A stretch of 36,590 nucleotides of DNA from Saprospiraceae bacterium (GCA_013001805.1 JABDLW010000473.1:1-36590), one strand, 5' to 3'. Shown: positions 27,632 through 32,516, counted from the stretch's first letter. The notes: generated from the letters alone by a model not told the origin. Numbers and translations: made by a program.

Positions 27632-29149
27632 GTGAAGATGAGTGATCACATATCTTCTGATTGGGATTTTTTGCTGGAATTGTCAAAAAAAGGCACCACT
27701 TCATGCGAGGATCGAAGTCGTTTGGATCCCTTACTAAATAGCTATGAACTGAGTACGGATAATACTTTCGAAATAAAGTTTTTCCGTGCTCTCGTGGCCG
27801 TCTCCATCCTTTCTCGAGCCGCCTTTCAACCTTCTCTGTCCGGGATAAATCCAAACCCCGCACCAACTGAAGATCTGGTTCCGGCAAGTAAGAAATCCTC
27901 TGATGTGATAATCGAGGCCCTCGCATTTAAGGAATGGGAAATAGTTGAAGAGGCATTAAGAATCATCAAAAGTCAAAAAAGGCGACTTCATCCATGGGCC
28001 TTACCCGCTTTGCTGGATCATGGGCAAAGCCACACGAATCAATACCCGTTGTTTGCCGCTACCTTTGGAGAGCGAGCAATCTGGCTTGCCAATTTTAGGA
28101 GTGAATGGCGATGGTGGTCGCAATTACATCAGGATTCAGCAGAAACAATAACAGAGGATGAGTTAATCTACTGGATACAATGGCAAAGATTGCGGGGTCA
28201 CCTGGAAATGATGGCAATTGACCGTCTTGCGGTAACTGACCGCATTAAATTACTACAAGAAATAAGTCAACGACCAATGGATCGCGATGCGGCTATAGGT
28301 CAGAGATACCTGAAATCTTCACGGGCCAAAGAGAGAAAGTACGCCCTCAGCATCCTGCTGCAGCTAGATACACAGGAATATCGGCAGAATATCACCAGCA
28401 TGGAAGACTTTGCGCGTCAGTTCATAACCATCCGTAAAGCTGTCATTTATCTCAACCAAAAGGTCCCCCGACCTTCAGGTTTTTCTTTTTCTACGCATGA
28501 CCTACCGCAGGTCATGCCAAAAGATGAAGTCTTTTGGAGGCTGTTAACCTTTTTGAAACCTGATCAGATTTTCAAACATATTGATTTTACGCCTGAAGTT
28601 ATTTGCAACCAAATAGTAGAAAAAGATCGATTGAAACCCCTTTGCCACATCCTGGTTGAGGCATTGACTAGACATCGATCTCCCGTCAAATGGCAAGAGG
28701 CCATGATGCTTCAGTGGTTAAAAATCTATCCGGATAAGAACACAATTTTGGCGCCATTTGAAAAAATTGTCAAGGTGCTCGACCATAATGTAACCCAAGT
28801 GTTGATAACGGCATTAATCGAGGACACGACCGAATACTTCACTACCAAATTATTAATAGTGGTGGCGAATACAAAACAATATGTGAATCGTGATTTGTCA
28901 ATTGCCCTGATGGATAAAATCTTCCGGTTGCTTACCACGAATCTTAGTCGTACTGGGGTGAATGACATTGGAGAAGTCTTACAGCACGCTCAATATTTGC
29001 TAGATCCCCGGGTCAATAACAGCATCATTGCCAATTGGGTTGAGGTGGATTATCGATACCAGAGACTGGCCAAAATCATGTTGGAATTTAGAGATACCAT
29101 TAAACGAAGATCAATTTTGCTAGCCAGCATTATCGAAGACGTAAGCTAG
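27632..29149 (+). CDS. Uncharacterised helical-repeat protein, DUF5691-like (first gene of a three-gene module)
   Basis: 505 aa, with a GTG at 27632 or an ATG at 27638 as the start. It is rich in Leu/Trp/Arg with helix-like periodicity throughout. The segment [12 protein letters not shown]...[18 protein letters not shown] matches my recollection of the DUF5691 signature. It has no catalytic, TM or signal motifs. Confidence 0.75.
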
Positions 29150-29208
29150 TCACTGCAACCGTCACCAAATGGACGGATTTTGGAGTAGATTATAAATTAG
29201 AATGTATT

Positions 29209-30297: not shown

Positions 30298-30323
30298 TCA
30301 AAATCAGGAGCTAATAAATCAAA

Positions 30324-32516
30324 ATGACCTACAAGCTCTTTGGAATTAGGCATCATGGGGCGGGATCTTGCCGGAATCTGGTCTCTGCCCTACATTCCTA
30401 TGCTCCAGAGATCGTGCTTATCGAATGTCCTGCAGATGCAGAATCTCTCATCACCTATGTAGCTCACGAGCTGGTGAAACCCCCGGTAGCAATCATGATA
30501 TATAATCCAAAGGACTTAAGCCAATATGCTTATTATCCATTCACTGTGTTTAGTCCGGAGTGGCAGGCGATACAATATGGTGTGGAGAAGAGTATTCCTG
30601 TGTGGTTTTTTGACTTGCCACAAAGTCAGAGTTTTCTCATTTCCGACCATTCCACTGTGACTAAAAAGGAGCAGGGTTTTACCCACGATCCCTTTGGTCA
30701 AATGGCAAAACTCGCGGGATTTGAGGATCCGGAACGCTGGTGGGAAGAATATATCGAACAACAAAAGGCCGCACCCGAAATTTTTGATACAATCCTTGAC
30801 TTGATGCAAGAACTGCGTAAATCAGATATTACTGATAAGAGATCAAATTTAATTCGCGAGGCCTTTATGCGTCAAAAGATCCGCGCTGCAATTAAATCCG
30901 GATACCAGAAAATAGCTGTTGTTTGTGGCGCCTGGCACGCCCCCGTCCTGACCGACTTATCTTCACCAGGTGCCAGTGATGACGCAAAGATTTTACGAGG
31001 GCTAAAAAGAACCACCGCTGCTTATACTTGGGTTCCTTGGTCTTACAATCGCATAGCCAGGCATACCGGCTATGGGAGTGGTGTCATATCGCCCTACTGG
31101 TACGAGGCACTTTTTGCTGATCATGCAACCGCCGTGGCCAGGTGGATGAGTCGAGCTTCAGCATTTCTTTCCGAACTCGGCCATCAAGTTTCGCCGGCAC
31201 AGACTATTGAAAGTACACGCCTGGCTGTAAATTTGGCCTATTTGAGAAAAAAAGCCATGCCAGGTATAGTGGAACTATTTGATGCGGTGATCGCCGTTCA
31301 TGTTCAAGGCAATGATCAAATTTTAGAAAAGCTCAGGCTAAGACTTTTAGAGGGCGAAAAGATCGGGACGGTGTCCGATCAAGTGCCGACTGTTCCATTA
31401 CTTAAGGATATTGAAACGCACCTCAAAAAAACACGCCTGTTTAAAGACTGGAAGAAGGATGGGCTGATTGAAAAGCATTTTGATTTACGCAAGTCGACAC
31501 AACTGGAAGCAAGCCGGTTGCTCCGGCGTATGCAGCTCTTGGGTATTAGCTGGGCTCAGGAAAAAGAGGTCGAACATAACCCTTTAGGTACCTTTCACGA
31601 ATACTGGGATCTACAGTGGTTCCCGGAATTTGAATTGCAAATCATCGAGGCAAGTATGTGGGGTAATACCCTGGAAGATGCATCGGTTCATTATATAACA
31701 CACCAGTTGGCTGATGATATCGCATTTGAAAAATTGGGGACCTTACTATATCAGGCCCTCCATGCCAACTTGCCGGGTCTGGTTCCTGGCATAAGCAAGA
31801 AAATAAGCGATCTGGGAAACTTAACTGACGATGTGCTTTCGCTGATGTTGGTCATGCCCCCGTTGATCTGGTCCCTGCGATATGGCAATGTTGCTCAATA
31901 TGACATGAATGGACTACATCAATTAATCGATCAATTATTTCCCCGGATTTGCATTCTAATTCCCGGAAAAACAACCAATCTCTCTGAGGAGTTGGCACTT
32001 GAATCTTTTAAGTCGATTAATCAACTACATCAAGCATTGCAGTTGCTGGAAAATCCAAAATACTTGCTTGATTGGACTACTACTTTGATTCAAATAGCAA
32101 ATATTCGTGAAGCAAATCCATTGATCAAGGGAAATTGCCTTCGACTTCTGCTAATCAGGGAAAGTCTCGACGAAAGTGCCATATACAAACTCGTGCGTTT
32201 CAATCTATCAAGTTTACTCGATCCATTTTACCCCAGTCTCTTCCTGGAAGGACTATTGTATGGCGGTGGCTGGCTGCTGATTCAAAAACCGGCCTTACGT
32301 AAGATCATTGACCAATGGATCTTGCCTTTGACTGAAGAGCAATTCATCACTTTTTTACCTATACTGCGGCGTACATTTAGTTCCTTTTCGGTTGAAGAAA
32401 AAGAAGCATTATACAATTTGTTATTTGCCGGCCGATTTGTGGAAGAAAAAGATGTCAATGTTAATGATCAAAGAAAAGAGTTGGTACTTCCCACCTTAAG
32501 GTTCTTACTGAAATAG
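30324..32516 (+). CDS. Uncharacterised 730-aa protein, DUF5682-like, with an N-terminal TraB/PrgY/TIKI/GumN-like domain followed by about 500 aa of helical region
   Basis: The N-terminus LFGIRHHGAGSCRNLVSALHSYAPEIVLIECP and the later REAFMRQKIRAAIKSGYQKIAVVCGAWHAP line up with the GTAHVS...PD.V.VEL and ERD..M...VVGAGH motifs of TraB-family proteins. The gene starts 26 nt after the ATPase gene. Confidence 0.85.
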   Translation: MTYKLFGIRHHGAGSCRNLVSALHSYAPEIVLIECPADAESLITYVAHELVKPPVAIMIYNPKDLSQYAYYPFTVFSPEWQAIQYGVEKSIPVWFFDLPQSQSFLISDHSTVTKKEQGFTHDPFGQMAKLAGFEDPERWWEEYIEQQKAAPEIFDTILDLMQELRKSDITDKRSNLIREAFMRQKIRAAIKSGYQKIAVVCGAWHAPVLTDLSSPGASDDAKILRGLKRTTAAYTWVPWSYNRIARHTGYGSGVISPYWYEALFADHATAVARWMSRASAFLSELGHQVSPAQTIESTRLAVNLAYLRKKAMPGIVELFDAVIAVHVQGNDQILEKLRLRLLEGEKIGTVSDQVPTVPLLKDIETHLKKTRLFKDWKKDGLIEKHFDLRKSTQLEASRLLRRMQLLGISWAQEKEVEHNPLGTFHEYWDLQWFPEFELQIIEASMWGNTLEDASVHYITHQLADDIAFEKLGTLLYQALHANLPGLVPGISKKISDLGNLTDDVLSLMLVMPPLIWSLRYGNVAQYDMNGLHQLIDQLFPRICILIPGKTTNLSEELALESFKSINQLHQALQLLENPKYLLDWTTTLIQIANIREANPLIKGNCLRLLLIRESLDESAIYKLVRFNLSSLLDPFYPSLFLEGLLYGGGWLLIQKPALRKIIDQWILPLTEEQFITFLPILRRTFSSFSVEEKEALYNLLFAGRFVEEKDVNVNDQRKELVLPTLRFLLK

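Follow-up and report, generated by a model that had tools for sequence, protein, structure and literature searches.

As a rule, MoxR ATPases remodel a specific client in partnership with a VWA adaptor (PMC7159879), and the described MoxR-VWA pairs include CoxD-CoxE, NorQ-NorD, CbbQ-CbbO and RavA-ViaA. YehL is a named MoxR subfamily (PMC3893208), one of the seven recognised among these ATPases, and the Escherichia coli K-12 record lists consecutive genes for yehL (putative AAA+ MoxR ATPase), yehM, yehP (VWA) and yehQ (SWIM). In the literature searched, the terms DUF5682 and DUF5691 were not found and no function was assigned to yehLMPQ; a large survey of MoxR-vWA conflict systems is silent on YehL, on SWIM and on TIKI (PMC7159879). 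The subject of this analysis is a set of three adjacent genes within a 36,590-nt stretch of DNA from a Saprospiraceae bacterium (GCA_013001805.1 JABDLW010000473.1:1-36590; hereafter the window), encoding in order a DUF5691 protein (gene 1), an AAA_5 ATPase (gene 2) and a DUF5682 protein (gene 3). Comparison with related loci makes it very likely that these genes are a reduced variant descended from a five-gene operon, and on balance we favor an explanation in which DUF5682 is the working core of this derivative.

A five-gene parent operon

The products of all three genes matched Pfam families far above the curated cut-offs: DUF5691 (PF18944) for gene 1 with 94.9 bits against a cut-off of 27, AAA_5 for gene 2 with 126.2 against 22, and DUF5682 (PF18934) for gene 3, near full length, with 643.9 against 26. 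They are therefore real genes and not chance open reading frames (ORFs). In NCBIfam, genes 1 and 3 matched no family, and gene 2 had no match that passed the cut-offs. An original prediction, made from the sequence alone, had named the same three families, and its three ORFs on one strand (Table 1), their intergenic gaps of 59 and 26 nt, the flanking atpD and scpA genes and the 142-nt spacer preceding gene 1 were reproduced exactly.

A scan of a genome collection yielded 80 loci from many phyla, from which ORFs were clustered and profiles built for five recurrent families. Architectures were counted by profile search of six-frame translations, avoiding ORF-calling artefacts in high-GC genomes, and the census was limited to loci in which the DUF5682 gene had flanks of at least 4.5 kb upstream and 1.5 kb downstream, 59 in all. 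The order SWIM, DUF5691, AAA_5, DUF5682, VWA_CoxE was present in 32 of the 59, the first gene encoding a SWIM zinc-finger protein and the last a VWA protein of CoxE type whose DQSGSM MIDAS motif is intact (Pfam). DUF5682 stood alone in 14/59 loci, and seven had DUF5691, AAA_5 and DUF5682 in that order, the same set as the window. The remaining arrangements, each in 2/59 loci, were AAA_5 followed by DUF5682, the five-gene set minus VWA_CoxE only, and the five-gene set minus SWIM and DUF5691. The five-gene order bears out the earlier statement that homologues of the three genes travel with SWIM and VWA proteins.

Complete operons were found in Cyanobacteria, Acidobacteriota, Chloroflexota, Actinomycetota, Proteobacteria, Bacteroidota, Verrucomicrobiota, Clostridia and others, more than 10 phyla altogether. 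Searched against 1.84 billion representative proteins, the DUF5682 profile matched 4,991 clusters (counted at 50% identity) at E ≤1e-3 and 1,971 at E ≤1e-30. The best homologues of gene 3 came from Saprospiraceae metagenome-assembled genomes (MAGs).

The window's genes are the middle three of the five-gene operon, with the same order, orientation and families, and differ from it in lacking the first (SWIM) and last (VWA_CoxE) genes. Neither the profile of the SWIM partner, built from 31 proteins, nor that of VWA_CoxE had a match when the entire 36.6-kb window was searched in six frames, an absence that had been predicted; atpD lies directly upstream where the SWIM gene would stand, and scpA directly downstream where the VWA gene would stand. 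The module is a VWA-less, SWIM-less variant of a known but uncharacterised kind of system, namely a YehL-type MoxR system made up of Pfam DUF families. The original label of an uncharacterised module was right in that no functional characterisation was found in the literature searched, but the system is not anonymous, being that of E. coli yehLMPQ and the YehL subfamily of MoxR ATPases.

Reduction at one chromosomal site

The site between atpDC on one side and scpA, followed by a TP_methylase gene, on the other carries three genes in the window and in loci L001, L002, L004 and L086, and two (AAA_5 and DUF5682) in L003, L013 and L087, the DUF5682 of L087 being 70% identical to that of the window. 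At the same syntenic site in L012, DUF5682 is found alone beside scpA. The proposal that the window holds a minimal core version of the system was thus not upheld, since relatives at this very site carry only AAA_5 and DUF5682, or DUF5682 alone.

In a rough neighbor-joining tree of 81 DUF5682 proteins, all reduced architectures fell into one Saprospiraceae/Lewinellaceae-type clade; the complete operons, some of them from other Bacteroidota such as Chitinophaga and Rapidithrix, lay apart. Within the reduced clade the three-, two- and one-gene forms were interleaved. The simplest reading of these sequences has a single loss of SWIM and VWA from the locus, early in the Saprospiraceae-type clade, followed by several losses of DUF5691 and the ATPase among relatives. 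DUF5682 is present in every related locus and is the constant element of the system. The window alone adds no function; together with its relatives, it forms a natural deletion series at one chromosomal site, which marks DUF5682 as indispensable, the ATPase as a strongly conserved but dispensable helper, and DUF5691 and SWIM as fast-evolving accessories.

The convergent adjacency of DUF5682 and scpA (window positions 32516-33390) was also seen in L001, L002, L003, L012, L013, L039, L078, L086 and L087. It is kept down to about 35-40% DUF5682 identity, even where DUF5682 is solo, and is probably inherited synteny. Independently, in L066 (Leptolyngbyaceae), a cyanobacterium, atpD-atpC lies directly downstream of the VWA gene of a complete operon; in the window clade atpDC is divergent. 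This is the one case outside Bacteroidota of atpDC beside a complete operon among the 32, and may be coincidence.

Relationship to E. coli yehLMPQ

The window ATPase is 38% identical to E. coli YehL over 352 of its 362 residues (E 2e-75), and the window DUF5682 is 25% identical to YehM (E 7e-31). The products of yehL, yehM and yehP matched the AAA5, DUF5682 and VWA profiles of the five-gene operons at E 1e-78 to 1e-92, and YehQ had no match to the profile of their SWIM partner. Pfam assigns YehM to DUF5682, YehP to VWA_CoxE and YehQ to SWIM. In both E. coli and the window the ATPase gene is immediately upstream of the DUF5682 gene; E. coli has the VWA_CoxE (YehP) and SWIM (YehQ) genes downstream and no DUF5691, whereas the window has DUF5691 and neither VWA nor SWIM. 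By these matches, E. coli yehLMPQ is a variant arrangement of the five-gene system, and similarity to YehL together with adjacency to DUF5682 places the window ATPase in the YehL subfamily.

DNA of yehLMPQ was found in 5353 of 5426 complete E. coli genomes (98.7%), and the operon is therefore core and not a variable island. It also offers a tractable model for the whole family. The value of the window locus lies in the natural reduction series to which it belongs and in this link to an E. coli operon, not in any uniqueness of its module. Upstream of yehLMPQ in K-12 (L084:2475-10290, covering yehF, yehH, yehI and yehK) are genes for the WGR-domain protein YehF and for the DUF4132 proteins YehH (a pseudogene) and YehI. 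The WGR and DUF4132 families did not recur beside the 32 complete operons of other phyla. DUF5691 was also compared with YehQ, YehI, YehK, YehM and YehF by hhalign, and no relationship was found.

Unequal constraint on the three proteins

Among pairs of complete operons, identity decreased in the order AAA_5, VWA, DUF5682, SWIM, DUF5691, with values of 80, 73, 58, 48 and 30%, respectively, for L031 against L059. A similar comparison of the window with its closest relative, L086, gave identities of 86% for the ATPase, 75% for DUF5682 and 38% for DUF5691, and nonsynonymous divergence (dN) of 0.10, 0.18 and 0.62; synonymous sites are saturated against the closest relatives, and dN alone is given, without dN/dS. 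Of the positions at least 90% conserved in complete operons, the window keeps 82% in the ATPase, 75% in DUF5682 and 43% in DUF5691, a departure of its DUF5691 from that of the five-gene operon that is to be read as a contrast between the three proteins, since the reference set favors complete operons by construction. Four conserved Trp residues are replaced in the window DUF5691. The earlier description of gene 1 as Trp/Leu/Arg-rich was loosely true (L 11.9%, R 7.1%, W 2.6%). On these comparisons DUF5691 is the variable element everywhere, the fastest-evolving component of the system, and especially degenerate in the window lineage; its function is the least certain of the three.

In the ATPase, by comparison, the G, P, G, T and K of the Walker A loop, the Walker B pattern hhRhEE (43/43), and the sensor-1 ATAN and RRF arginines are invariant in 43 homologues. 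The ATPase is considered functional because it is still under strong constraint here. Its best sequence matches in the PDB were the AAA domains of midasin, and NorQ. With midasin and the MoxR-VWA pairs named above it shares membership of the AAA_5/MoxR class, and the VWA partner in complete operons is of the CoxE type. The window differs from these systems in having no VWA partner and no known client, and in the Glu-Glu of its Walker B motif in place of Asp-Glu; DUF5682 and DUF5691 are extra components unseen in CoxD-CoxE-like systems.

Two irregular ATPase genes were encountered among the related loci. In L047 (1358-3481; a Roseiflexaceae MAG), a YehL-type ATPase has an insert of about 345 residues located exactly in the Walker A loop, with junctions GVPGTAK / CVKHD...IIVHN / SWVSEHL; a start at Cys and an end at HN followed by Ser are intein hallmarks. 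In L001 (8912-9996), where DUF5682 is 69% identical to that of the window, the ATPase is split into pieces of 259 and 97 aa in different frames and the source record calls no gene, which reflects either a pseudogene or a MAG assembly error.

The loss of genes in relatives raises an alternative in which the window module is a decaying remnant, with only DUF5682 functional and DUF5691 and the ATPase as relics heading for loss. Relatives at the same site lack DUF5691 (L003, L013, L087) or both genes (L012, and likewise many solo loci), the L001 ATPase is frameshifted, DUF5691 is truncated in L022, and the low retention of conserved positions and the replaced Trp residues in the window DUF5691 are as such a process would leave them. 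All three ORFs are nevertheless full length in the window, L086, L002 and L004 despite saturated synonymous sites, and between the window and L086 the dN of the ATPase is lower than that of scpA (0.12), with every ATPase motif intact. DUF5691 is the fastest-evolving protein in complete operons as well, so that rapid evolution is a trait of the family and no proof of decay, and the frameshift in L001 belongs to a MAG and may be an assembly error. We regard decay as an improbable account of the window, although one to be kept in mind.

Architecture and putative active site of DUF5682

In an AlphaFold model of the window DUF5682 (pLDDT 84.8), residues 1 to about 265 form an alpha/beta domain, in which an insert at 109-123 is poorly predicted; a middle region of mixed structure separates this domain from an alpha-solenoid at about 435-730. 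A fold search of the PDB with the whole protein was uninformative, returning generic alpha-solenoids (karyopherins, CAP-G, SA2, designed repeats) at E ≥0.04. The solenoid resembled HEAT subunits of condensin and cohesin in this search, but weakly and below significance.

In the alpha/beta domain, hereafter the N-domain, the residues G7, R9, H10, E34, E79, D97, R178, E179, R183 and H205 are present in all 81 DUF5682 sequences, even where DUF5682 is solo, and G12, M182 and G202 are likewise invariant (81/81); H11, the second His of the GIRHHG motif, is present in 80/81. Modelled separately (pLDDT 80.7), the N-domain had as its top fold match in the PDB the protein ChaN (2g5g), first of 350,542 chains, with a non-significant E value of 0.044 and a TM-score of 0.32-0.34 (Foldseek), and Bcr135 (2rad, 3b55) appeared at ranks 8 and 48. 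Both belong to the TIKI superfamily, whose members have a parallel beta-sheet core, a 2His/2Glu site and a conserved basic residue (PMC6254334).

The motifs of the N-domain follow the same order as those of YbaP, the E. coli TraB-family protein, in which GSIH, E67, R228-x4-R233 and GALH correspond to GIRH, E34, R178-x4-R183 and GAWH of DUF5682. Spacing is nearly equal, with Glu34 24 residues after His10 and YbaP Glu67 26 residues after His41, and the R-x4-R...GAxH segment of DUF5682, in which GAWH follows the strand at 196-202, matches QRNLAWR...VGALH of YbaP. DUF5682 therefore resembles the TIKI/TraB/PrgY/ChaN/erythromycin-esterase superfamily in having two GX2H motifs, each after a beta-strand, a Glu about 25 residues past the first His and an R-x4-R about 20 residues before the second GX2H, as in YbaP. 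It differs in a helical insert of about 90 residues (100-195) and in fusion to about 465 further residues, and the similarity is non-significant by Foldseek, Pfam and hhalign. A TIKI/TraB-like N-domain, as the original prediction had suggested, is plausible, and indeed likely, from motif order, motif spacing and the top fold match; it is not statistically established, and the Pfam, PDB-profile and hhalign searches (given below) did not sustain that part of the claim.

The resemblance to ChaN, which binds haem, introduces a second alternative, that the system handles a metal or haem cofactor, with a ChaN-like N-domain and an ATPase (with VWA where present) that inserts the cofactor into an unlinked client, as do CoxD-CoxE, NorQ-NorD and the chelatases. 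Besides the fold match, no non-self Pfam family other than Cofac_haem_bdg was found in two or more members, the VWA partner is a CoxE-type protein, the ATPase has NorQ among its sequence matches in the PDB, and insertion of metal centres is the typical task of MoxR-VWA systems (PMC7159879). All of these similarities are weak, however; the invariant His/Glu/Arg set also fits hydrolytic TIKI members (PMC6254334), and no candidate client metalloenzyme is conserved beside the operon. Cofactor handling is accordingly given a minor share of our belief, about that given to decay.

A third possibility is that the N-domain is histidine-phosphatase-like, with the RHHG after beta-1 representing an RHG-type phosphohistidine motif. 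The near-invariant R9-H10-H11-G12 does follow the first strand, and at least eight structures of the superfamily occur in the fold list (3fdz, 1rpa, 8u7e, 9mmh, 5um0, 2h0q, 2ikq, 6m1x). These matches were worse than that to ChaN (E 0.4-2.6, probability ≤0.12), and the remaining motifs reproduce the spacing of TraB/YbaP. The spacing of the DUF5682 motifs does not fit the histidine phosphatase superfamily, and this assignment is very improbable.

Five further positions of DUF5682 (G258, H262, L370, R396 and G697, family numbering) are at least 90% conserved in complete operons and replaced in every three- and two-gene locus, as well as in most solo loci. They may be candidate contact sites for the lost SWIM and VWA partners, or clade markers. 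A search for DUF5682 positions conserved only where the ATPase is present gave clade differences only.

Chromosomal housekeeping or mobile defence

Recruitment of MoxR-vWA pairs as switches in conflict systems (PMC7159879) suggests another role for the module, in which the MoxR ATPase would gate a TIKI-like protease effector, with DUF5691 and SWIM as sensors of invaders, in the manner of the vWA-MoxR ternary systems. DUF5691 and SWIM do evolve much faster than the engine components, the DUF5682 tree is incongruent with taxonomy, suggesting horizontal transfer between phyla, E. coli yehLM is silenced by H-NS (PMC3686432), and TIKI-fold proteases include toxins such as RRSP (PMC6254334). The vWA-MoxR-VMAP, iSTAND and beta-propeller ternary systems likewise combine a MoxR-class ATPase, a VWA protein and a third component (Kaur et al. 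2020; PMC7159879), and the window ATPase has a weak match to bpMoxR. This match, however, at 23.6 bits is below the Pfam cut-off of 27, VMAP, iSTAND, propeller and effector domains are absent, and no vWA or propeller gene was found in the window.

Other searches also speak against a conflict role. With PADLOC-DB 2.0, genes 1 and 3 had no match and gene 2 only a 34-residue, P-loop-level match to IetA (E 9e-4). Of 72,556 plasmid records, 39 contained the family, and most of these plasmids were large and non-mobilizable; of 50,697 phage records one did, an unannotated phage-labelled contig. The family is thus nearly absent from phages and mobilizable plasmids; in E. coli its operon is core. The 119 genes flanking the 32 complete operons represent 158 Pfam families, among which only generic ABC transporters recur, and no integrase, transposase or defence family is prominent. 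In the window clade, the locus lies in stable synteny with housekeeping genes around it. A role in conflict is therefore a poor candidate, less probable than either decay or cofactor handling. The five genes thus look like a self-contained unit of the chromosome to which no client gene is linked, and housekeeping-type protein maturation or remodelling, which the original prediction had preferred to mobile defence, is most likely in view of the PADLOC search, the plasmid and phage counts, the core status in E. coli and the neighbors of the operon.

A proposed mechanism

Although the details of mechanism are tentative and drawn largely by analogy, the favored explanation, that of a reduced operon with DUF5682 at its center, can be outlined as follows. 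DUF5682 would be a cytoplasmic two-part protein, in which a TIKI/TraB/ChaN-like site in the N-domain (His10, Glu34, Glu79, Arg178/Arg183, His205) would hydrolyse or bind a ligand and the C-terminal alpha-solenoid would hold a protein client or partner. The YehL-type ATPase, in which all nucleotide-binding and hydrolysis motifs are intact, may assemble into a ring, as in other MoxR systems, and remodel DUF5682 or its client at the expense of ATP. The VWA protein (YehP-type), where present, would be a MIDAS-based adaptor between ATPase and client, and the fast-evolving DUF5691 a specificity adaptor, under much weaker constraint in the window lineage. In the complete system, a YehL ring and a YehP-type adaptor would act on or through DUF5682, with SWIM and DUF5691 as variable specificity elements. 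The window lineage would either do without the VWA step or have it supplied by another part of the genome; the adaptor layer has evidently been shed in this lineage, and, to judge from the gene content of these loci, DUF5682 works without it.

Several observations weigh against this explanation. The Pfam ChaN family (Cofac_haem_bdg) was matched in only 2 of 21 members, at E 0.07, and a sequence-profile search of the PDB with the N-domain found no TIKI member. In hhalign, the N-domain scored 18.6 against the YbaP/TraB profile, where a reversed control reached 21.5 and unrelated families 17-20; although the alignment paired GIRH with GSIH and E34 with E67, its score fell within the reversed, shuffled and unrelated controls and it is not used as evidence. 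The operon itself is apparent, being inferred from the spacing of the three genes. As 36.6 kb of the genome is visible, SWIM and VWA partners may be encoded elsewhere in it. Finally, repeated loss of the ATPase and DUF5691, the L001 frameshift and the degenerate DUF5691 of the window allow a reading in which genes 1 and 2 are no longer needed.

A bolder form of the proposal, to which we attach a low probability, is that DUF5682/YehM represents a new class of self-sufficient cytoplasmic TIKI-fold hydrolase mounted on an alpha-solenoid and ancestrally gated by a MoxR ring, a CoxE-type VWA adaptor and SWIM/DUF5691 specificity factors. If this were true, an ATP-gated processing machine would be present in more than 10 phyla and in the E. 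coli core genome, and the series of five, three, two and one genes in Saprospiraceae would separate its catalytic from its regulatory parts. Still more speculative is a chromosomal client, hinted at by the SWIM protein, the E. coli WGR/DUF4132 neighbors, the adjacency to scpA and the weak resemblance to condensin and cohesin HEAT subunits.

Genomic setting

The coordinates of the module and of its conserved motifs are collected in Table 1. The start of gene 1 is ambiguous, the alternative to the GTG at 27632 being an in-frame ATG at 27638, two codons on.

Table 1. Features of the module, in positions of the window; residue numbers refer to the translated proteins.
Feature	Position	Strand	Remarks
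Spacer between the divergent atpD and gene 1	27490..27631	.	142 nt; presumed promoter region
Gene 1, DUF5691 helical protein	27632..29149	+	505 aa; Pfam DUF5691 E 1.1e-26, residues 43-498
Gene 2, YehL-type MoxR AAA+ ATPase	29209..30297	+	362 aa; Pfam AAA_5 E 1.2e-36
Walker A P-loop, GVPGTAKT	29458..29481	+	from translation; G, P, G, T, K invariant in 43 homologues
Walker B variant, LVRIEE (Glu-Glu for Asp-Glu)	29665..29682	+	R and EE invariant in 43 homologues
Gene 3, DUF5682 / YehM-type	30324..32516	+	730 aa; Pfam DUF5682 E 4.5e-193, residues 21-727
GIRHHG motif after beta-1, first GX2H	30342..30359	+	His10 putative catalytic or ligand residue
Glu34, end of strand beta-2	30423..30425	+	invariant 81/81
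REAFMR helix motif (R178, E179, R183), then VVCGAWH, second GX2H (His205)	30855..30938	+	from translation

Upstream, atpD lies on the minus strand with a Pfam-supported start at 27489 and is followed by atpC (atpDC at 25715-27489); downstream, scpA (32569-33390, minus strand) is followed by the TP_methylase gene. The 142-nt spacer is a putative control region, proposed in the original prediction to be shared with atpDC. Scans for sigma-70-type promoters and for terminators gave results at chance level, with a tool that does not cover promoters of Bacteroidota. GC content is 0.43-0.46 over the module, like that of its neighbors, no tRNA genes were found in the window, and no window ORF had a Pfam match to an integrase or transposase, in keeping with the core-chromosomal context that had been predicted. 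The rest of the window encodes, by Pfam, a peroxiredoxin, a two-component pair, a tail-specific protease, an H+-pyrophosphatase, a beta-CASP RNase, an ECF sigma factor, GltX and aminopeptidase P.

A metal-uptake operon on the plus strand (11396-13825), about 14 kb from the module and with no link to it found, encodes a DtxR/MntR-type iron-dependent repressor with a FeoA domain, followed by genes for a ZnuA-type binding protein and an ABC ATPase. Three minus-strand ORFs of 509, 373 and 119 aa (15127-16659, 18166-19290 and 25237-25599, respectively) have no Pfam match. The position of the 119-aa ORF beside atpC is kept in L001 (120 aa) and L002 (113 aa), both likewise without a Pfam match. The 509-aa ORF is adjoined by a minus-strand gene (13814-15130) whose product belongs to DUF5723 (E 4e-41), a family of unknown function.

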